Assembly: GCA_964592765.1 (NCBI GenBank)
Contig: CAZQGC010000004.1
Location: 25,233-49,232 of the forward strand
Length of the DNA stretch: 24,000 bases
Direction: 5' to 3'
Source of the DNA: Candidatus Micrarchaeota archaeon
GTDB taxonomy: Archaea > Micrarchaeota > Micrarchaeia > Micrarchaeales > Micrarchaeaceae
Under the pieces are notes generated by a model. It saw only the letters and a program-made list of their open reading frames with translations. It was not told the DNA's origin and did not search any database. The translations under genes were made by a program, and so were the position numbers. Below, one piece after another: positions 5,073-20,572 of this stretch (position 1 is the stretch's first letter; every line of letters begins with the position of its first letter).

Positions 5073-7034
5073 TTAGTGCCGTATCGTAAGCGCCTTTACC
5101 TTGCCGTCGCCATCGACATAAGCGTACCTGCCTGTGCCGTCGGGCTTCCTCAACAGCACATGGAAGCCTTCCGACAGTTTCTCGGTGTGCAGTATCTCCA
5201 TGTCCTTTTCGATTGGATTTCCGCCCGAAGCGTCCGAAATCAGCCTCTCCGCATCACCTTTTATGAGCTCCTCATGGAGGACTTTATACTGTTCGGCAGT
5301 TATGCGGTTCTGGTTGCCCGTCTTTATTGCTATATTCCTTCCTACAGATTCCGGAGTTGCAATGATATCTATGGTGTATGCCATCGACTGCGCCCCGCTC
5401 CCGTACCCGACGAATATGCCCTTTCTGGATTCCGGTTCCGACGAAAAGTCGTACCTTGTCAGTGCACTAGCAAGGCTGACGAATGCAGAGCTCGAATACG
5501 AGTTGCCAATCTCTGAAGGGAGTGCGAGTGCCTCGTTTATGTGGAACCTGCCTATGAACTCCTTGAATTCCGGCTGCTTCCCCAGTTTCTTTATCCAGCT
5601 CCATGCATCCGATATGCCCTTGTCCTTTTCTATCCAGTCCACTATCTCCCATTCCTCCTTGCCCCCGCCCCTATTGAAGTCCTTCAGCCTCTCCTCTATT
5701 AGGTCTGTCAGCGATTTTCCGCCCATGGGCGATTTTCCTAGGCTTTCCCTATCCTGCATCTCATCCAGGTGCTTTGGTTCATAATCCTCCAGATAGCGTG
5801 CGAACAGGTAACTTGTGAAATATATCGCCTGCTTCGGGAACGGCACGTGTGATATGAAAAAGCCGAATCCCCCAAGGTCGAATTCTCCGTTGCTCTTCGA
5901 GTAGTGCTCCTCGAGCTGATCCAGCGCCTTCGATACTACATAGATGTATGCGAGTTCGGAGAACGTGCCGTACACCACCGGCGTTTCACTGCCGAATTTG
6001 GTAAAATCGGAGAGTGTTTCATGGAAGCTTCCGACGCCCGGCTTCGGCATCACGCTTACAAGCTCCGGATTGCCGGAAACCCACATTGCAACTGCCGCTG
6101 CGCCCTGCGTCGCCTCCGCATTCTTCGCCTTTTTGCCGTCGTATACCGCAGTGTCGGCAGTGATAACGAGCGCCGATTCCGGCTCATCCGAACTGAGGCT
6201 GCCCCTCACTCTATTGACCGCTTCGTTCATCGCGAGTACGCCGCCGACGCATGCAAACGTTATCGGTACGACAGACGCATTCTTGAGCATGTCGATGATC
6301 GGCCTATATTTTGCCTCGTCTTCCTCAATGAGTTTTGATGCAACTATCATCAGTGAAGGCTCTATTTCCGGCCTGCTCCTGTCCGCGTTGCTTTCAGTGG
6401 CGAAATAGATGCTGCGTATTGGTGCATCCGCAAGCCTGTCCATGGCGTGGCTGTCGTCGGTGATGCCCTTTACCATGCTGTACAGGGCGTCCGCGACAAA
6501 GGTCACGTTGCTCTCGGACAGCCCAGGCAGGACCATCTTGTTTATCATCAGCCCATGCTTTATCTTGCCGTTCTCGAATCCCAGCAGCTTTTCCATCTCA
6601 TCCGATCCCATTCCAACTCCGGGTGCCGCAACGACCATCTTCGTTATTCCGACCTGCGCCTGCACGTTGGATTCTATGCTTGTGAACTCCCGCCTCTGTA
6701 CTTCCCCAGACCCAAGGTACGCGAAAGAAGCTGAGAATGCCTCCGGCAATTCCGCAACATCAGAATCCGGTCTTGCAGACCATTCGTAAAACTCCCGCAT
6801 TTCGTCCGAATTCCCGAATACGCTCCTTTCATTAGCAAAGCCGTTCAATGGCCATTCCGCCGGATTTCCAATCTGCGTTTCCCAGTTGCCTTCGGGACCG
6901 TGCAGTTCGGAAATCTGCTCTGCCCACTCTTTGGCCCATTCATTGTTTATCTCGTTCTGTTTTTCAGCTGGCTGCTTTGCCGCGCCCTCGGGGCTCCTCG
7001 AGCGGAAGTTTCTGCTTTGTTGCATTGAAATCAC
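5073..7034 (-). CDS. HMG-CoA synthase-like condensing enzyme (bacterial MvaS-type core) with ~117-aa N-terminal extension
   Basis: The 653-aa ORF carries several blocks that match MvaS/HMGS motifs. FATESNADRSRP matches the catalytic Glu block (ATES.vD.sK). ITFACVGGVLAMNEA matches the catalytic Cys block. ALVITADTAVYDG...ATQGAAAVAMWVSGNP matches vIAtDtArY...PTQGAGAVAM. FISHVPFPKQA matches the catalytic His block (FHvPf.KM). The GNSYSSSAFVSLASAL and FVGYGSGAQS blocks are also present. The track start at 7034 is GTG; the first ATG is at 7025. Confidence 0.8.
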   Translation of the reverse strand: MISMQQSRNFRSRSPEGAAKQPAEKQNEINNEWAKEWAEQISELHGPEGNWETQIGNPAEWPLNGFANERSVFGNSDEMREFYEWSARPDSDVAELPEAFSASFAYLGSGEVQRREFTSIESNVQAQVGITKMVVAAPGVGMGSDEMEKLLGFENGKIKHGLMINKMVLPGLSESNVTFVADALYSMVKGITDDSHAMDRLADAPIRSIYFATESNADRSRPEIEPSLMIVASKLIEEDEAKYRPIIDMLKNASVVPITFACVGGVLAMNEAVNRVRGSLSSDEPESALVITADTAVYDGKKAKNAEATQGAAAVAMWVSGNPELVSVMPKPGVGSFHETLSDFTKFGSETPVVYGTFSELAYIYVVSKALDQLEEHYSKSNGEFDLGGFGFFISHVPFPKQAIYFTSYLFARYLEDYEPKHLDEMQDRESLGKSPMGGKSLTDLIEERLKDFNRGGGKEEWEIVDWIEKDKGISDAWSWIKKLGKQPEFKEFIGRFHINEALALPSEIGNSYSSSAFVSLASALTRYDFSSEPESRKGIFVGYGSGAQSMAYTIDIIATPESVGRNIAIKTGNQNRITAEQYKVLHEELIKGDAERLISDASGGNPIEKDMEILHTEKLSEGFHVLLRKPDGTGRYAYVDGDGKVKALTIRH

Positions 7035-12106: not shown

Positions 12107-12784
12107 TTATGTTTTTTGATTCCCGCCACGCTTTTTGCGCAGCACACAGAAGAGGTGCAGGCTGTCATATGGCTCTATGTCTATTCTCTGCACAACCTCA
12201 AAGCTTACCGACAGCCTGGCGAGTGTCTCGGCGAAGACCTGCCCGGGCTTCTTTGATATGTCTATGCTCTGGGATTTTATCGCAAGGTATGCGTATCCTC
12301 CATCCTTCAGCAATTTACTGTTCTTCAGTAGTATCTCTGCCTGGTCCCTGGCCGATACGTCCTGATATATCGCGTCGCACTCGCCGACCGATTGGCTATA
12401 TTTTTCGGTCTCATTTGCATCTGCCAATATGGGGAACATATTGTCCCTACGTTCACACACACCCAGCAGCTGCCGCATGTTCCTCTCGGATATCTCTACG
12501 CAGAAGACCTTCCCGGAGCGCGCGATATCGCTGACATGGCTCGGTGTGGTGCCGGTCGCTGCGCCAAGGTAGAGCACGCATGAATCTTTATGCACGTGGA
12601 GCTCTTTCAGTCCCTTCATTATTGCAGCAGCGAGCTTGCTCCTGTAAGGATTCCAAAACCTGTATTCCAGCGTCCCAGACGCCACTAACTCCTCGCCATA
12701 GACTCTGGCCCCGGGTGTCCTGTTGACGGTTGCGAGCCTGCCGTCTATGAGGTATACCCCTTCAAAAAGCTCCCTTATGTCCAT
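12107..12784 (-). CDS. flpA: Fibrillarin-like rRNA/tRNA 2'-O-methyltransferase
   Basis: The 225-aa ORF has EYRFWNPYRSKLAAAI, the SAM motif VLYLGAATGTTPSHVSDI, and IYQDVSARDQAEIL. All are hallmark fibrillarin blocks. Confidence 0.92.
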   Translation of the reverse strand: MDIRELFEGVYLIDGRLATVNRTPGARVYGEELVASGTLEYRFWNPYRSKLAAAIMKGLKELHVHKDSCVLYLGAATGTTPSHVSDIARSGKVFCVEISERNMRQLLGVCERRDNMFPILADANETEKYSQSVGECDAIYQDVSARDQAEILLKNSKLLKDGGYAYLAIKSQSIDISKKPGQVFAETLARLSVSFEVVQRIDIEPYDSLHLFCVLRKKRGGNQKT

Positions 12785-12826: not shown

Positions 12827-13141
12827 TCACTCGGTGCCGGCCTTCTTTGCTGGAATACCCACCCTTTCGAGATATCTAGGCAGGACTATGAGGGTACGTT
12901 TGCTGTCCATCGCATTAATCGCTACCACGTACGCGCTCCCACGCGTTCCTGTGACCACACCGATCTTACCCTTGTAGCGAGGGTGCGGTATATTTCCGAA
13001 ATTTCCCTTTGGGATGATTGCGACCCGCTCGCCGATAGCGAACTCCTTTATGATTGATCTTATCTTTAGCTGCGAAGGCTTGTGATGCCTTGCAAGGTGC
13101 CTCGATCTCCCACTAAGGAGCCCGACTGATCTCTTTGCCAT
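12827..13141 (-). CDS. rpl21e: 50S ribosomal protein L21e
   Basis: The sequence is MAKRSVGLLSGRSRHLARHHKPSQLKIRSIIKEFAIGERVAIIPKGNFGNIPHPRYKGKIGVVTGTRGSAYVV.... HPRYxGKxGxV is the L21e signature. I place the start at ATG 13141; the track's upstream GTG is at 13150. Confidence 0.9.
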   Translation of the reverse strand: MAKRSVGLLSGRSRHLARHHKPSQLKIRSIIKEFAIGERVAIIPKGNFGNIPHPRYKGKIGVVTGTRGSAYVVAINAMDSKRTLIVLPRYLERVGIPAKKAGTE

Positions 13142-13187
13142 GATGACCACTAAACTTGTCTATGGAACTAATTTAGATGCACAACGT

Positions 13188-13195
13188 ATTTATAC
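13188..13195 (+). promoter_or_regulatory. TATA box (ATTTATAC) for the TBP-like gene
   Basis: The box is centred ~26 nt upstream of GTG 13217, predicting a leaderless or very short-leader mRNA. A second TATA-like TAAATTA (~13168..13176) faces rpl21e on the other strand. Confidence 0.45.
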
Positions 13196-13216
13196 TTTAT
13201 CAGATATACTGTAGCG

Positions 13217-13576
13217 GTGCATTCAATGAAAGGGCAACGGGGGTCCCTGCAAAGGTCAGCGTCAGGGCATACTGGTATCAAGCTTAAGCCTACGTACGAG
13301 GTTGTGAACATAGTGGCGAGTGCCGAACTCAACATAGAGCTCGACCTTTACGGCCTGGCAAGGCTGTCCAGAGACGTAGATTACGAGCCGGAGCAGTTCC
13401 CGGGTGCAATATTCAAGGTGCATGACCCGAAGGCTGCGCTTCTCCTGTTCAACAGCGGCAAGATAATTTGCACCGGTGCGAAGACGACAGCAGATGTGGA
13501 GCGCGCGGTGGACCATGCGGTCCAGCTCGTAAAGAAATACGTCGTGACCTACAAGGGCAAGCGCCCTACTAGGTAA
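13217..13576 (+). CDS. tbp: TATA-box-binding-protein homologue containing a single TBP repeat (half-size TBP)
   Basis: The ORF is 119 aa, or 116 aa from ATG 13226. The segment YEVVNIVASAELNIELDLYGLARLSRDVDYEPEQFPGAIFKVHDPKAALLLFNSGKIICTGAKTTADVERAVDHAVQLVKKY matches one complete TBP repeat, including the NIVAS, YEPEQFPG and SGKxxCTGAK blocks. No second repeat is encoded upstream or downstream. Confidence 0.85.
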   Translation: MHSMKGQRGSLQRSASGHTGIKLKPTYEVVNIVASAELNIELDLYGLARLSRDVDYEPEQFPGAIFKVHDPKAALLLFNSGKIICTGAKTTADVERAVDHAVQLVKKYVVTYKGKRPTR

Positions 13577-13590
13577 GCCTGGTTTATTTG

Positions 13591-13613
13591 CCTTCCCAGA
13601 AAAAATAGGAAGG
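13591..13613 (+). terminator. Hairpin after the TBP-like gene (CCTTCC / GGAAGG, 11-nt A-rich loop), preceded by a T-rich TTTATTT run
   Basis: The 6-bp perfect stem spans 13591..13596 and 13608..13613. TTTATTT at 13583..13589 lies just after the stop at 13576. Confidence 0.35.
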
Positions 13614-13693
13614 TATAAATATCTTATTGAGAGAAACACTTTGACAGACTTGGTTTCACGCTAATTCTGTAACAACCCTATTCTCATCCACCC

Positions 13694-13728
13694 GGGGCGT
13701 ATTTCGGTACGCCTCGAAAAACATTTTT
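13694..13728. terminator. Stem-loop (GGGGCGTA/TACGCCTC with one G-U) flanked by A5 and T5 runs; candidate bidirectional terminator
   Basis: GGCGTA (13696..13701) and TACGCC (13708..13713) pair perfectly with a TTTCGG loop. A5 lies at 13717..13721, which reads as T5 for minus-strand mcm transcripts. T5 lies at 13724..13728 for plus-strand transcripts. Confidence 0.4.
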
Positions 13729-13770
13729 CCTTATAGCCTGGGCCATGCACGGCCGTGCCGCATTGCGGTA

Positions 13771-15843
13771 TTATTCGACCTCACGCTTCACGATCTTGAT
13801 GATTCCGGGGCGCGGCGAGAATATGTCGCCGCTTCTTTCCAGTTCCTGAATGTACTTGTTTGCCGTGTCTGCGTTCATTCCTGCCTTCTCCGCCTCCTCT
13901 ATTACCCTCTGCATCCTGCAGGTGCCTTCCCCCTCCTCTAATTTTCTCACTATGGAGAGCACAACATTTAGTTTGTCGACCTTCTCCCTGGGCATGCCCG
14001 TGAGTATCGTGTCTATATCGCGCCTGCCGCCGCTGTCAACGGCCAGCGTTTTTAGCATGAATTCGCTCAGCATTATCGCGCGCTCCGCATCCATCACCTC
14101 GACAATCTCCGAAAGCCTGGTCTTTGCGCTCGCCTCCGCCATCCTAACAAGGCCCTCTATCTGCCTCGGGGTTATCGGAACAGCGCCATGCTTCGTGCCA
14201 CTCCTCCTCAAATCAACATAATAATCCTCTATCTTCTGCATTGCCTCGTCCGACAGCCTAGGCTGTACGCTCTTCTTGGCATATGCGATGTACTTGCGCA
14301 GCAGTTCCCCCTCTATCGGTGGCAGTTCGACCTGCTTGTAGCCTTCGATATCGGCTATCTTCGCCCCTGCCGCCTCATGCTGCAAAAGGATATGCTTTGC
14401 AATCTCTTTGTCTTGGGTCTCGTCGAGCACGTCTTTTATTGGGAATATGAGGTCAAATCTGGAAAGGAGTGTCGGTGGTATGTTGAACTGCTCTGCAGGG
14501 TACATCGACGTGTCGAACCTGCCGAATTTTGGGTTTGCGGCAGCCAATACCGCGGTCTTCGCGTTGAACGTAGCGATTATGCCCGCTTTGGCAACGCTTA
14601 TTGTCTGCGATTCTAGCGCTTCATGGAGTGCGGCACGGTCCTCCTCCCCCACCTTGTCAAATTCGTCTATGCAGACAATTCCACCACTTCCCAAAACGAG
14701 CGCCCCTGCCTTGAGTGTCCACCCCCCATCAGAAAAGTCATCCCGCTCCGCAACGGCCGTCATTCCCCCTCCCGTTATCGACTTGCCGCTTACGTATATG
14801 CCCTTTGGCACGAGTTTTGATACCGACTGCAGCACTCTGGTCTTTGCGCTTCCCGGGTCTCCTATCAGGAGTATGTGCATGTCGCTTCTTATTAGGCCCC
14901 CGTCGACCAGGAGTTTCCCCGGTGTGCCGCCGAAGAGCTGCAGGGCGACTGCCTGCTTTATCTCGGTATGGCCGTATATGGAAGGTGCCATCGAGGCAGT
15001 TATCTTGTTGAATATCTCAGGGTCTCTTGCAAGCTCCTTGATCTTCCTCTCCTCCTCTTCGTTTATGTACAGTTCGGCAAACTCCTTCTGCTTCGGAACT
15101 AGCGAAACGGTGTCCAAAAACATCGTGTACAGGTTTTTCTCAAGCTTCCCGCGGGCGTTCCTTCGCGGCCGTATCCGCAGCATCCCGGTTACGTCGACTC
15201 TATCCCCAGGTATGACTGTGTTGACCAAATCGTCCTCTATCCAGACCTCAAGTTGCCATGTCGGGCTGTTGCCTTTGAGCCTCTCCAAGGGGTCCTGGAC
15301 CGCGATTTTCTGCAGGTTTATGAATTTCGATTCCTCTGGAACCTCCTTTATCGAGCGCCGCTTGCACTGTGTGCATATCTCCGGAATCTCGTCCTTGTCC
15401 GTCCTAGCTTTGTAGACCGACCCGCAGTACGTGCACCGGTATGTACCAATCTTTATTTTTGGGTTTATCTCCGATCTCTTGACTATCAGGCCATCTAAGA
15501 GTATAAGTTTTCCGATATACTTTGAGCCCACGTCCTGCACAAGCGGAGTGTTTACGCTCTGGCCAAAAAACCTTACGTGCAGCTCGCGCTCCTCGGTCTG
15601 CGCGAAGCCCATCCTGTCCCTTAGGGATTCCGTAGCGGCCTCTATAATCAGGTCTGGACTATCTATCAATTCGTTAGCGAGATCCGGGTCGAATCCTTCG
15701 AGGTCCTTGAAGTCAACGTTGAGGCTCGCTCTCTCCGGGTATGCCACTGTGAGTGCCTCTATGCTTTCCCTGTAATGCCTGTCGAAGAACTCGTCAAACT
15801 TCACCTTCAGCCCCTCGGTTATAGGATCTGCCATAAGAAGCAC
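13771..15843 (-). CDS. mcm: MCM replicative helicase
   Basis: The 690-aa ORF has an N-terminal domain zinc finger CTYCGSVYKARTDKDEIPEICTQCKRRS. It has Walker A ILLIGDPGSAKT, Walker B CIDEFDK, and the arginine-finger region SRFDLIF. A C-terminal winged-helix-like tail follows, and there is no intein. The track start at 15843 is GTG; an ATG is at 15834. TTTTATAA at 15864..15871 (minus strand) is a TATA candidate. Confidence 0.93.
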   Translation of the reverse strand: MLLMADPITEGLKVKFDEFFDRHYRESIEALTVAYPERASLNVDFKDLEGFDPDLANELIDSPDLIIEAATESLRDRMGFAQTEERELHVRFFGQSVNTPLVQDVGSKYIGKLILLDGLIVKRSEINPKIKIGTYRCTYCGSVYKARTDKDEIPEICTQCKRRSIKEVPEESKFINLQKIAVQDPLERLKGNSPTWQLEVWIEDDLVNTVIPGDRVDVTGMLRIRPRRNARGKLEKNLYTMFLDTVSLVPKQKEFAELYINEEEERKIKELARDPEIFNKITASMAPSIYGHTEIKQAVALQLFGGTPGKLLVDGGLIRSDMHILLIGDPGSAKTRVLQSVSKLVPKGIYVSGKSITGGGMTAVAERDDFSDGGWTLKAGALVLGSGGIVCIDEFDKVGEEDRAALHEALESQTISVAKAGIIATFNAKTAVLAAANPKFGRFDTSMYPAEQFNIPPTLLSRFDLIFPIKDVLDETQDKEIAKHILLQHEAAGAKIADIEGYKQVELPPIEGELLRKYIAYAKKSVQPRLSDEAMQKIEDYYVDLRRSGTKHGAVPITPRQIEGLVRMAEASAKTRLSEIVEVMDAERAIMLSEFMLKTLAVDSGGRRDIDTILTGMPREKVDKLNVVLSIVRKLEEGEGTCRMQRVIEEAEKAGMNADTANKYIQELERSGDIFSPRPGIIKIVKREVE

Positions 15844-15935: not shown

Positions 15936-17033
15936 TCAGAAGATCCCAAACTTCCTCTTTTTGCTGTCGGTCTCCTCGAACCTCTTCAGGAGCTCCTTCT
16001 GCTCCTTTGACAGGCCCTTCGGTATATCAATCTTTATTACCACAATCTGGTTGCCCCTCTGTCCAGAGCCTATATGCGGCATCCCGCTTCCCCTTAGGGT
16101 TATCCTGTCGCCATCCTGTGATCCCTCCGGCACGCTTATTCTTTTATCGCCATCGAGCGTGTCAACGGATACTTCGCCGCCGAGGGCCGCCACGTAGAAG
16201 GGCACACGTTTTTCGATATAGAGGTCGTTCCCCTCGCGCTCAAACTGCGGATCATTTTTGACCGCTATGTCTATATACATGTCTCCACTTCCCTGCCTGC
16301 CGTAATCGCCCATGCCGCGCAGCTTCAGCCTTGCCCCTGCATCGACGCCCTTTGGTATCGTGATGTCTACTGTCTGGTCAGCCACCTTTTTTCCTGCGCC
16401 GTTGCATTCCCTGCACGACTTCTCAAAGCTTTTCCCGCTGCCGCCGCACTTCTGGCAGATTCCAACCGTCTGTATGGTCCCGAATACGGTTCTGTTCGTT
16501 GAGACAACCTGTCCAGAGCCGTCGCACTTGTTGCATGTGAGAACCTTTGTGCCGGGTTCGGCTCCGCTGCCCCCGCAGTGCTCGCAACGCACTACGTGGC
16601 GGACCCTTACCTTTTTGACTGCCCCAGAATAGGCTTCGCGGAGGCTTACCTCTATGCCTGCCTGGATATCATTGCCCCTGTCACCCCGTGCGCCTTGCCG
16701 GAAGCCGAACAAGTCGCCGAACATGCCCCCGCCGCCTCCGAAATCAAATCCCATCTCCCGGAAGACGCTTTCCATGTCGAAGTCGCGGAATATGTCCTGC
16801 TGTGTATACCTTCTCTGGAAGCCTTCTGGCCCAAATGAATCGTACTGCTTCCTCTTATCGGGGTCGCTTAGGACTGCATATGCCTCATTTATCTCCTTGA
16901 ATTTCTCCTCGGCGGCGCTGTCTTTGCTGACATCGGGGTGGTATTTCAGGGCAAGTCCCCGGTACGCCTTCTTTATCTCGTCGATGCTCGCATTCTTGCC
17001 TATCCCGAGCACTTCGTAGAAGTCCCTTGCCAT
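15936..17033 (-). CDS. dnaJ: Chaperone DnaJ (type I Hsp40)
   Basis: The 365-aa ORF has a J domain with HPD ([11 protein letters not shown]) and a G/F-rich linker ([16 protein letters not shown]). It has four CxxCxGxG zinc motifs: [24 protein letters not shown] and CRECNGAG. Confidence 0.93.
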
Positions 17034-17073
17034 TCCAATCGTCTGCTATGTGTTTTACGTGCCTCGTTTTTGC

Positions 17074-18921
17074 TTACTTCTCCACCTTGAAGTCTGCATC
17101 GGTCGTGCCGTCTGGATTTTCTCCAGGACCTCCGGAAGGACCGCCTCCGGGTCCTGCGGCCTGGCCTCCTTTGTACATGCTCTCCCCAATGCCCTGCAGG
17201 TCTTTGGCAAGTTCGTCGCTCTTTTCCTTTATAGCGGAGTAATCTTCCTTCTTAAGGAGCTCCTTGAGTTCTTCTACCGCCTTTTCTATGTGGTCCTGGA
17301 CCTCCTGCGGGGTCTTGCCCTTATAATCACCGAGCGCCTTCTCTGCCGTGTAGATAAGCGATTCCGCGCCATTCTTCGTCTCTATGTTTTCGCGTATGCG
17401 CTTGTCCTCATCCTCGTATTTTTTCCAGTCGTCAATCTTCTTGTTTATCTCATCCTTGTTCATCTTGTGTGGTGCCACTATGTCCATGCCCTGGTTCTTT
17501 CCGGTCGCCTTGTCCGTGGCTGTCACATGGAGTATGCCGTTCGAGTCTATGTCGAATGATACCTCAATCTGCGGGATGCCCCTCGGAGATGGAGGTATGC
17601 CTGTCAACTGGAACCTGCCAAGCTCTATGTTGTCTTTGGCCAGCGCCCGCTCGCCCTGCACCACATTTATGTCAACCTGCGTTTGGTTGCTTTCTGCGGT
17701 CGTGAATATCTGCGATTTCTTTACCGGTATCGTCGTGTTTCTCTCTATTATCGGAGTGGCCACGCCCCCAAGCGTTTCTATGCTGAGTGTCAGCGGAGTT
17801 ACATCAAGAAGCACGATATCCTTCACTTCGCCGGTGAGGACGCCCGCTTGTATTGCCGCGCCCAGCGCCACTGCTTCCATCGGGTCAACGCCGCGCTCTG
17901 CCTTCTTGCCAAGAAGCTGCTCTATGTACCTTTGCACTATCGGCATCCTCGTCGGTCCTCCAACGAGTATGACCTTGTCGACCTTTTCGGGTTCCAGCTT
18001 TGCATCTTTCAGTGCCTGCATGACTGGTTTTGTCGACCGCTCTATTATCGGGACCACAAGGCTCTCGAGTTTTGCCCTTGTCATTGAATACGTGAAATGC
18101 GTCGGGGTGCCGGATTTGTCCTGTGCAAGGAACGGGAGGTTTATCTCGGTAGTCAGCACGGTGGAGAGTTCTATCTTTGCACGTTCGCCAGCCTCCCGAA
18201 GGCGCTGCATGGCCTGCATGTCTTTTGTGATGTCAATTCCGCTCTGCTTCTTTATCTCCTCAATAAGGAAGGCTACTACTGCGTTGTCCATATCCGTGCC
18301 GCCGAGCTGCGTGTCCCCGCTCGTCGACTTGACTTCGAAGACTCCGTTCCCGAAGTCCATGATTGTAACGTCAAGCGTGCCGCCCCCGAAATCGTATATG
18401 AGGACCTTCATGTCATTTTTCGTCTTATCCAATCCGTAGGCAAGGCATGCTGCGGTCGGCTCATTCACCAGCCTGACTACCTCAAGCCCCGCTATCTCAC
18501 CGGCATCCTTGGTTGCCTGCCTCTGGTTATCGTTGAAATATGCGGGTACTGTTATAACTGCCTTCTGGACAGGCTCTCCCAAAAAAGCCTCGGCGTCCTG
18601 CTTTATTTTCTGCAGAAGCATGGCAGACAGATCCTGCGGCTTGTATTCCTTGCCAAATACCTTGTATACCGTATCGGTTCCCATTTTCCTCTTAAATGTA
18701 GTGATTGTTCCGTTGGGGTTGGCTACCGCCTGCCTCCTTGCCGGTTCCCCTACAAGCCTCTGTCCGTCCTTCGTGAACGCGACGAAGCTTGGAAATGCCT
18801 TGCCATAAAGGCTGGCGCCTTCGCTGCTCGGTATTATAACAGGTCTGCCTCCTTCCAGTACGGCAGCTGCGCTGTTGCTAGTTCCCAAGTCAATTCCTAT
18901 GATTTTCATCTGATTCACCAT
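17074..18921 (-). CDS. dnaK: Chaperone DnaK (Hsp70)
   Basis: The 615-aa ORF carries [47 protein letters not shown] and [10 protein letters not shown]. After KRKMGTD it lacks the ~24-aa insert of Gram-negative DnaK, so it is the Gram-positive/archaeal type. The canonical N-terminus MKIIGIDLG would start at 18909. A TATA-like TATAAATT on the minus strand (18949..18956) suggests an internal promoter. Confidence 0.95.
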
Positions 18922-18985
18922 TTAACGTAATTTGTTGCAATTATCTACAATTTATACCGATATATGGCTCCCCGCCTCATCAATT

Positions 18986-19573
18986 CTATTTTTTGTCGCC
19001 GTCTTTCCCTGTTTCTTCCCCGTCTCCCTCTTCGGCGGCAGGCTCTTTGGACACTATGACGGATGCCGCCCTAAGCAGCCTTCCATTAATCACATAGCCC
19101 TTCTTTATCACTTCCAATATTCTTCCTCCCTCCCCCTTCTCATCCTCACGCACCATTATTATTTCGTGCCGGTACGGATCGAACTTCCCGCTTGCCTCTA
19201 TTTCTGCAAGACCGAATTTCTTCAGGACATCCGAGAAGTTTGCATAAAGTAGTTCTATGCCTCTCACAAGGTTCTTGTCATCCGATTTCGAAGCTGCAAT
19301 AAGGGTAAAGTCAAATTCATCGATGATATTGAGCAATGCCTTTACAATCTCGGCGATTCCAGATTCCCTCGCTGCGTTGGAGTCGTTTGCCATGCGCTTC
19401 TTGTAATTGTCGAACTCCGCCGCAAGGCGCAGCATCCTGTCTTTTATTCCGTCGAACTCTTTCTTGCTTATGTAGCCATCGCCCTCCTTTTCTCCTTTTG
19501 TGCCTGCGTTATCCTCATTCGCAACGGCTTTATCCTCTGAGGTTGGAACATCCTCTTTTTTCATAAACGCCAC
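18986..19573 (-). CDS. grpE: Nucleotide exchange factor GrpE
   Basis: The 195-aa ORF has an acidic N-terminus, a long helix with RLAAEFDNYKKR (the GrpE signature AEfdN.rKR), and a C-terminal beta domain FDPYRHEIIMV....GYVINGRLLRAASVIV. The track start at 19573 is GTG; an ATG is at 19564. Confidence 0.9.
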   Translation of the reverse strand: MAFMKKEDVPTSEDKAVANEDNAGTKGEKEGDGYISKKEFDGIKDRMLRLAAEFDNYKKRMANDSNAARESGIAEIVKALLNIIDEFDFTLIAASKSDDKNLVRGIELLYANFSDVLKKFGLAEIEASGKFDPYRHEIIMVREDEKGEGGRILEVIKKGYVINGRLLRAASVIVSKEPAAEEGDGEETGKDGDKK

Positions 19574-20080: not shown

Positions 20081-20116
20081 TTGAAATGTCAGATAAAAGT
20101 TGACAAATGTGGTAAG

Positions 20117-20572
20117 ATGAAAGAACCGAAAAAGAAGAGCGGCAAGAGCGCCCTGCCCGCATCAGATAACCTGTCCGAATGGGAACGTGACTGGTTCGTC
20201 GCACCCATGGCGCCATTAGGAATGTCTGGTATTGCTTCACTATGGGATTCCGGCATCGCATCTCCGCGCGCGAGCGTATCGGAGAAGGACGGCACAATTA
20301 CGGTATCGGCTAATTTGCCGGGCATGGACAAGAAGGACCTTGACGTGCGCATCGGGGATGACAACGTAATCATAAGCGTCAGAAAATCAGAGGCGTCGGA
20401 GCGCCGCGGCCGCAACTTCCAGTCCAGTTCATACAGTGAAACGAGCTATTACCATGCAATACCGCTGCCAAAAGCGGTCATCTCTAGTTCAGCACGTGCG
20501 GTCTACAAGGACGGTATCCTGAAGATAACGCTGAGGGAGAGGGCAGGTTCCGGAAAGCTGAAGATAGAGTGA
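20117..20572 (+). CDS. hsp20: Small heat-shock protein, Hsp20/alpha-crystallin family
   Basis: The alpha-crystallin domain reads ASVSEKDGTITVSANLPGMDKKDLDVRIGDDNVIISV...YYHAIPLPKAVISSSARAVYKDGILKITL. I use ATG 20117 because the track start at 20081 is a TTG inside the promoter AT-tract. Confidence 0.88.
   Translation: MKEPKKKSGKSALPASDNLSEWERDWFVAPMAPLGMSGIASLWDSGIASPRASVSEKDGTITVSANLPGMDKKDLDVRIGDDNVIISVRKSEASERRGRNFQSSSYSETSYYHAIPLPKAVISSSARAVYKDGILKITLRERAGSGKLKIE

Follow-up and report, generated by a model that had tools for sequence, protein, structure and literature searches.

A one-repeat TATA-box-binding protein at the TBP locus of Micrarchaeota, proposed to act as a homodimer

Introduction

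Among pseudo-symmetric proteins, the TATA-box-binding protein (TBP) is the textbook example; it is thought to be the duplication-fusion product of a homodimeric ancestor. To our knowledge, no organism runs its transcription on a TBP with a single repeat. The present study concerns a TBP gene of this kind, encoded on a stretch of 24,000 nucleotides from a Candidatus Micrarchaeota archaeon (assembly GCA_964592765.1, contig CAZQGC010000004.1), which was analysed at its full length and is termed the window throughout.

Stand-alone proteins with a single TBP domain have been described in other archaea. Halobacterial TbpA closely resembles real TBP repeats; it is non-essential and close to the full-length TBPs of the same species (PMC3597702). 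The monopartite TBP-domain proteins of Thermococcales likewise consist of a single TBP fold of about 90-100 amino acids, but they are highly diverged, give short and weak local alignments to TBP and coexist with a normal TBP (PMC3597702, Table 3). In the N-terminal domain of RNase HIII and in DNA glycosylases the TBP fold is fused to a catalytic domain. Apart from the one-domain proteins of PMC3597702, where neither ARMAN nor Micrarchaeum is mentioned, no report of a one-repeat or monopartite TBP in Micrarchaeota or DPANN was found in the literature searched.

Compared with these systems, the Micrarchaeota protein is closest to the canonical archaeal TBP, represented by that of Pyrococcus woesei and by the two-repeat proteins P0023 and P0117 of other Micrarchaeota. 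It belongs to the same domain family, carries the same motifs and conserves the aligned DNA- and TFB-contact positions, and with the canonical TBP of its sister lineages it shares the genomic position beside rpl21e. However, canonical TBP has two repeats per chain and forms a pseudo-symmetric monomer, whereas the single repeat found here would need an exact homodimer to build the saddle. In contrast to TbpA, the Micrarchaeota gene is conserved across an order-level clade, lies at the ancestral locus of TBP and evolves under very strong constraint. The strong divergence of the Thermococcales type is not seen (E ~3e-39 against solved archaeal TBPs), and unlike RNase HIII and the glycosylases the protein stands alone. 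With the hypothetical ancestral half-TBP it would have its working form in common, two identical half-saddles joining into one saddle, although the Micrarchaeota form appears to be a secondary reduction from a two-repeat TBP. By its sequence and genomic position the protein is a TBP orthologue, presumably TBP-like in its working, which nevertheless lacks the two-repeat architecture.

Results and Discussion

Architecture of the one-repeat TBP

The gene consists of the following elements:

13226 (ATG)..13576, + strand: coding sequence of the one-repeat TBP, 116 amino acids; the gene call P0003 is identical
13217, + strand: alternative in-frame GTG start, which yields 119 amino acids
13574-13576, + strand: stop codon TAA
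13295..13540, + strand: single TBP domain (S1-H1-S2-S3-S4-S5-H2), Pfam PF00352, residues 27-108

In an earlier note, drawn up from the letters of the window, this open reading frame (ORF) of 116-119 amino acids had been described as holding exactly one TBP repeat and closing at this TAA. This is borne out by Pfam: PF00352 is matched once, over residues 27-108 and profile positions 2-85 of 85, with an E-value of 3.1e-27 and 94.7 bits, which lies above the curated cut-off of 22.9 and places the product in the family. Other Pfam families gave no match to the ORF product. The NCBIfam models of full-length TBP are matched over half their length with about 87 bits, compared with cut-offs of 181-347, and one domain is found where TBP has two tandem repeats. 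The motifs NIVAS, YEPEQFPG, ALLLF and GKIICTGAK are all located in this domain, and the predicted product is a stand-alone protein of 116 amino acids with short, unconserved tails.

A six-frame search of the 24-kb window with a profile hidden Markov model built from the one-repeat TBP family, run with filters off and accepted up to E<=10, detected neither a second TBP repeat nor a remnant of one; the sole domain found spans 13254-13557. The same result was obtained with tblastn. A count of TBP domains, which the earlier note had suggested for the whole genome, gave a single domain in the window and at each one-repeat locus; at E<=10 a second TBP domain was also absent within +/-6 kb of all 87 loci.

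Aligned with the two repeats of P. woesei TBP (PDB 1PCZ/1AIS), the product scores 68.4 bits against either, with about 45-50% identity to each as counted from the printed alignment. A weak lean towards repeat 2 is confined to the C-terminal half. The mixture of repeat-1 and repeat-2 features pointed out before is therefore reproduced.

With respect to the start codon, the orthologue L003 is informative: the GTG within its GGTG does not share the reading frame, and its ATG is preceded by a stop codon. This makes ATG 13226 the likelier start of the gene in the window than GTG 13217. A 125-amino-acid ORF runs antisense to the TBP gene (13262-13639, - strand) and probably results from the conservation of the sense frame.

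Distribution and constraint

Orthologues were collected in a survey with one genome per GTDB species, from which the best 80 matches, reaching down to 52% identity, were taken. At least 80 one-repeat loci were found in at least 79 assemblies, all of them labelled Micrarchaeota or a synonym (a few Marsarchaeota, one Acidoferrum). The genes encode 98-124 amino acids and every locus has a single domain; a few longer calls from the first ATG represent over-long upstream starts and were set aside. Ca. Micrarchaeum sp. A_DKE, whose genome is closed (CP060530.1), carries the gene, as do the chromosome-level sequences OY970071.1 and OY969114.1 and contigs of 0.48-1.05 Mb. Moreover, two Logan assemblies, independent of each other and from different sequencing runs, encode the identical 116-amino-acid protein. 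Between close orthologues the ratio of non-synonymous to synonymous substitution (dN/dS) is 0.00-0.05, and among the loci L011, L012 and L013 dN is 0 over a core of 85 residues at a dS of 0.43-0.56.

These data bear directly on the question whether the single repeat is an artefact, produced by assembly collapse of near-identical repeats, by a frameshift or by decay into a pseudogene. Since repeats of related TBPs are up to 88% alike at the DNA level, a collapse is conceivable in principle, and several short contigs do stop soon after the TBP gene. However, the same architecture recurs in 79 assemblies that come from many groups and were produced by various methods, closed and chromosome-level genomes among them, and the contigs traverse the whole gene with its own N- and C-terminal tails and its stop codon. 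The contig breaks are located 44-215 nt downstream and not at a repeat boundary, which argues against a collapsed tandem repeat. In addition, the low dN/dS and the lack of any second-repeat trace in all frames speak against it. With a negligible residual probability, an artefact is refuted for practical purposes. The earlier view of an expressible gene rather than a decaying fragment is upheld by the orthologous loci, the closed genomes, the low dN/dS and the conserved promoter described below, and the sequences support a genuine one-repeat TBP gene that is neither decaying nor misassembled.

Genomic position

The gene upstream of the TBP gene is:

12827..13150, - strand: rpl21e (Pfam Ribosomal_L21e), divergent from the TBP gene and 67-76 nt upstream of it

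The gap agrees with the roughly 75 nt given before, and a second repeat is missing from it in any frame. An adjacent, divergent rpl21e is found at 75 of the 80 one-repeat loci. The loci of three two-repeat Micrarchaeota proteins were inspected, namely P0023 from an Anstonellaceae metagenome-assembled genome (MAG), P0117 from a Micrarchaeia MAG and P0004, a re-fused TBP described in the next section. All three genes are divergent from rpl21e in the identical position. By position the one-repeat gene is hence orthologous to the canonical two-repeat TBP gene of other Micrarchaeota, and the shared place beside rpl21e implies that it descends in place from the normal TBP gene of the phylum. It encodes the Micrarchaeales form of the general transcription factor TBP, cut down to a single repeat. 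In a metagenome scan with a two-repeat profile, the universal pattern YEPEQFPG drew in 80 TBP loci, apparently of diverse archaeal origin; five of them lie beside rpl21e, a figure that carries no information on the position of two-repeat TBPs in this phylum.

Probable single origin and re-fused TBPs

A neighbour-joining tree was calculated from 89 one-repeat domains and the separated repeats of 115 two-repeat relatives. All 89 one-repeat domains fall into one clade (175 of 200 bootstraps). The only other members of this clade are both repeats of the four proteins P0001, P0002, P0004 and P0005, which have a length of 195-196 amino acids. Their repeats are nested among the one-repeat proteins in 200 of 200 bootstraps, next to the 98-amino-acid protein of locus L086, and P0002 and P0004 measure exactly 2 x 98 amino acids, twice the length of the L086 protein. 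Within each of the four proteins the repeats are 85-93% identical. The fixed differences of the clade from two-repeat TBPs include VDYEPEQ in place of VEYEPEQ and AALLLF in place of SLLLF, and the re-fused proteins share both. Furthermore, their inter-repeat linker LAKR or SAKR corresponds to the MAKR N-terminus of the one-repeat protein and is a trace left by the tandem duplication of the whole gene and the subsequent fusion. Nesting, length and linker together show that the four proteins evidently arose from the one-repeat gene by recent whole-gene tandem duplication and fusion. P0004 (L088, 6001-6591) is located at the rpl21e locus.

The tree points to a single origin of the one-repeat state at the base of a large clade. 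Tree and synteny combined identify the one-repeat TBP as derived, the outcome of a secondary loss within Micrarchaeota, and not as an ancestral relic. Placing the single repeat among repeats 1 and 2 of archaeal TBPs, as the earlier note had proposed, led to the single clade but to no assignment: the attempt to identify the survivor as repeat 1 or repeat 2 failed, because the outgroup repeats are too alike.

Changes in TBP repeat number were observed elsewhere as well. Four consecutive TBP domains on the same strand are found at the metagenome loci L126, L142, L168 and L171 and probably represent two adjacent two-repeat genes, and P0190 (272 amino acids) contains three TBP repeats, the first two of which are nearly identical.

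Signs of gene conversion between repeats

In the two-repeat TBPs of Micrarchaeota, a set picked by similarity to the query, the repeats are 60-93% identical in protein. The DNA of three genes (L088 6001-6591, L090 6001-6594 and L091 6001-6549) was compared. Within a gene, identical runs of 41, 59 and 71 nt are common to repeats 1 and 2, and 68-77% of the identical residues are encoded by the same codon. When these repeats are instead compared between species, the identical runs shrink to 8-14 nt and the share of identical codons to 25-44%. As the within-gene values far exceed those between species, ongoing intragenic gene conversion is indicated, which would keep the two-repeat TBPs of the phylum nearly symmetric. 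A literature report of gene conversion between TBP repeats was not found.

Repeats homogenized in this way would supply the homology for an in-frame removal of exactly one repeat unit. Such a unit was probably deleted by recombination or slippage between the near-identical repeats. The weak lean towards repeat 2, in combination with equal scores against both P. woesei repeats, is compatible with a chimeric deletion product, without proving it.

Functional residues and proposed mode of action

Six residues of the single domain, Asn28, Val30, Phe58, Phe75, Ile81 and Thr83, are invariant in 13 one-repeat homologues and align with the corresponding residues of P. woesei TBP. Based on the TBP-DNA structures of yeast, Arabidopsis and P. 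woesei, these are taken by us to be the DNA-contact positions, with Asn28 and Val30 in S1, Phe58 and Phe75 as the intercalating residues, and Ile81 and Thr83 in S5. The stirrup Glu54-Pro-Glu56-Gln-Phe58, part of YEPEQFPG, is likewise invariant. YEPEQFPG, which binds TFB in the published structures, matches the stirrup of repeat 2 in P. woesei TBP exactly. A structure prediction for the re-fused P0004 gave the canonical TBP saddle, with a predicted local distance difference test (pLDDT) score of 89 and template-modelling (TM) scores of 0.83-0.91 to solved TBPs. If the unfused protein were already a dimer with saddle geometry, a head-to-tail fusion resulting in a normal TBP would be expected.

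According to the proposed mechanism, two chains of 12-13 kDa would pair via their central S1 strands and form a two-fold symmetric, ten-stranded saddle, which would bind and bend the TATA box. With the TFB-binding YEPEQFPG on both stirrups, TFB may dock on either side. The direction of the promoter would then be derived from the reading of the B recognition element (BRE) by TFB, as is largely so already in archaea. At a later stage, one sublineage duplicated its whole one-repeat gene in tandem, fused the copies and thereby regained a two-repeat TBP. The one-repeat TBP is accordingly predicted to bind TATA boxes and to recruit TFB and RNA polymerase.

Because the gene occupies the ancestral TBP locus, keeps all DNA- and TFB-contact residues and was re-fused in one sublineage, the best supported reading and, in our judgement, a reasonably probable one is a homodimeric TBP whose promoter direction is determined by TFB and the BRE. 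The earlier suggestion of a homodimerising half-TBP resembling the ancestral state can therefore be retained for the homodimer, though by indirect reasoning, but not for the ancestral state, since tree and synteny mark the protein as derived. The balance is even for the wider claim that two-repeat TBPs are missing altogether from an order-level clade of Micrarchaeota, which conducts its entire transcription through a symmetric one-repeat homodimer, with one lineage re-running the duplication-fusion.

If this holds, bipartite, collapsed and re-fused states of TBP would exist side by side in nature, and the ancestral-homodimer hypothesis would become testable with natural one-repeat, re-fused and two-repeat sister forms. 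The lineage of the four re-fused proteins displays the duplication-fusion step actually occurring. A strictly symmetric TBP would, moreover, reveal in a clear-cut way how TFB and the BRE alone set promoter polarity. Experiments are feasible, as at least one organism of this clade (Ca. Micrarchaeum harzensis A_DKE) grows in co-culture.

The proteins carry a variety of names. In databases the A_DKE protein (QRF74309.1) is entered as 'TATA-box factor', 'TFIID TATA-box-binding protein' and 'hypothetical protein', none of which flags the single repeat, and the NCBI and UniRef records of one-repeat TBPs often read 'hypothetical protein'. With such naming a general factor like TBP can appear to be absent from Micrarchaeota genomes, which calls for caution in annotation.

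Alternative explanations

Several observations weigh against a homodimer as the sole TBP. For Ca. Mancarchaeum acidiphilum Mia14, whose genome (CP019964.1) is closed, published arCOG statistics count two proteins of the TBP family arCOG01764 (PMC5498576, Supplementary Data 4). One assembly, YP3.bin74 (JAKAVF01), contains two one-repeat genes, L033 at rpl21e and L071 (~2479-2814, + strand) away from it, beside an ORF resembling a helix-turn-helix regulator. The L071 copy is 79-80% identical to the first and shows a dN/dS of 0.15, compared with 0.02 for orthologues. The AlphaFold2 model of the monomer, based on an alignment of 13 sequences and of low confidence (pLDDT 53), speaks neither for nor against a homodimer. 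No TBP entry, and with it no expression or proteome record of the gene, was found in the supplements of the A_DKE paper, and TBP is not mentioned in the main texts of three Micrarchaeota papers. As a separate observation, the L071 product could form heterodimers with the first copy.

The Mia14 count would agree with a normal two-repeat TBP encoded elsewhere in the genome, in which case the one-repeat protein would be an extra factor like Halobacterium TbpA and might act as a modulator or as a competitor for TATA boxes or TFB. The one-repeat TBP-domain proteins described so far do coexist with full TBPs (PMC3597702), and the TBP scans covered the window and +/-6 kb of 87 loci. Such an accessory paralogue is nonetheless unlikely, given that the gene resides in the locus of the canonical TBP of related lineages, is under extreme purifying selection with all TBP functional residues invariant, and has no companion TBP domain within the scanned regions. 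A weak further point is that about 180 two-repeat TBPs occur among the best matches listed in two database searches and none has a longest contig equal in size to a contig with a one-repeat gene, where the longest-contig size refers to the cluster representative only and the one-repeat contigs include those of 0.48-1.2 Mb. Alternatively, the count of two in Mia14 could mean two halves, and the gene pair of YP3.bin74 might be viewed in the same way, as a split TBP whose saddle is a heterodimer with a different half-TBP encoded elsewhere. This is a quite improbable arrangement: a second copy is present in one of 79 assemblies among the best 80 matches, and L071 is a recent, lineage-specific duplicate under more relaxed constraint. 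Besides, the tree contains one one-repeat clade instead of two complementary families, and the re-fused TBPs contain one and the same one-repeat unit twice. A monomeric role of another kind, for example in RNA or protein binding, with TBP function supplied otherwise, has its precedents in RNase HIII, the DNA glycosylases and the diverged Thermococcales proteins, all of which use a single TBP fold (PMC3597702). The present protein, unlike these, is about half identical to bona fide TBP repeats, and its minor-groove, intercalating-phenylalanine and TFB-stirrup residues are unchanged although synonymous sites are saturated. Since a change of function should release some of these constraints, such a role is very improbable. 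Both the split TBP and the paralogue with another role, two of the three readings put forward at the outset, are disfavoured relative to the homodimeric TBP.

Promoter and transcript ends

Around the TBP gene the following signals were located:

13188..13195, + strand: TATA box ATTTATAC of the TBP gene promoter
13216..13219, + strand: GGTG motif, 20-22 nt downstream of the TATA box
13568..13593, + strand: short hairpin over the stop codon, followed by a T-rich run

The TATA box, previously noted at this site, is present and conserved: a ATTTATAC or ATTTATGC box, preceded by GCGCAAnnT-like bases, is found upstream of the orthologues L003-L019, L057 and others. Its spacing to GGTG is fixed in the orthologous promoters and fits the usual archaeal distance from TATA box to transcription start. 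GGTG is thus the probable transcription start or initiator region, which would leave a leader of about 9 nt. A function of GGTG as Shine-Dalgarno site was also considered and seems less likely, since the fixed distance to the TATA box is better suited to a transcription-start element. As TATA box and GGTG are retained in the orthologues, Micrarchaeota with a one-repeat TBP apparently still use TATA promoters, and classical TATA boxes are present in promoters of the organism of the window. The hairpin with its T-rich run came from a consensus scan that yielded one site against 0.6 expected by chance, and could possibly be the terminator of the TBP transcript.

A conserved RNA-like element downstream of the TBP gene

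The 194 nt downstream of the TBP gene had been described as containing hairpins and T-runs but no TBP-like reading frame. The six-frame search agrees with the latter, but beyond hairpins and T-runs a conserved, small-RNA-like gene with its own TATA box is located here:

13612-13746, + strand: candidate gene for a small RNA, following closely on the TBP gene
13612-13621, + strand: TATA box GGTATAAATA of the candidate gene, preceding the invariant block by about 50-60 nt
13660-13693, + strand: near-invariant block GCTAATTCTGTAACAACCCTATTCTCATCCACCC of about 35 nt, which begins about 84 nt past the TBP stop codon

The layout comprises the TATA box, a variable 5' part, GCTAATTCTGTAACAACCCTATTCTCATCCACCC, a hairpin formed by GGGGCGTAT...TACGCCTC and a T-run. 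Compensatory changes between loci are seen in the hairpin, and either strand of the TATA-like sequence at 13610-13621 can be read as a TATA box. The same arrangement, downstream of the TBP gene and on the same strand, is found at about 60 loci (the window, L003-L019, L021-L029, L031-L044, L046-L053, L056, L058, L060, L064, L065, L076 and L077). A covariance model detects the element once per locus and always on the TBP strand; in L079 it is situated upstream of the TBP gene. Near the TBP gene it was not found in the A_DKE clade, in the clade of L059 and L068-L087 or at two-repeat loci. Neither Rfam, searched at gathering thresholds and at E<=10, nor ARAGORN gave a credible match. Its features suggest a small RNA gene of about 100 nt that has not been described before.

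Six short contigs from independent assemblies (L001-L006) have their 3' ends 44-215 nt past the TBP gene. Five of these ends lie inside the conserved RNA-like block and that of L001 at the TATA box of the element. The breaks are probably due to branching of the assembly graph, caused either by co-occurring species that share k-mers or by a multi-copy block.

At a subset of loci (L025, L032, L033, L035, L036, L039, L040, L042, L043, L049, L064, L065 and L077) a second conserved non-coding block, TTCTGCGCGAAAACAAGATATCCGGTGTGCCATACTCCTTT...GAGGGGCGCAT, follows about 100-150 nt past the RNA-like element. It is absent from the window, where the gene for MCM comes next.

Further genes of the window

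The remaining close neighbours of the TBP gene are:

13771-15843, - strand: MCM, downstream neighbour of the TBP gene
12107-12784, - strand: fibrillarin

Farther genes include those for GluRS, RpoE and DnaK/DnaJ/GrpE, among others, and the neighbours are ordinary archaeal housekeeping genes. The chaperone genes form a bacterial-type DnaJ-DnaK-GrpE cluster beside MCM (15936-19573, - strand), with an HSP20 gene nearby (20081-20572, + strand). A further ORF at 5073-7034 encodes a long HMG-CoA-synthase-like protein of 653 amino acids.

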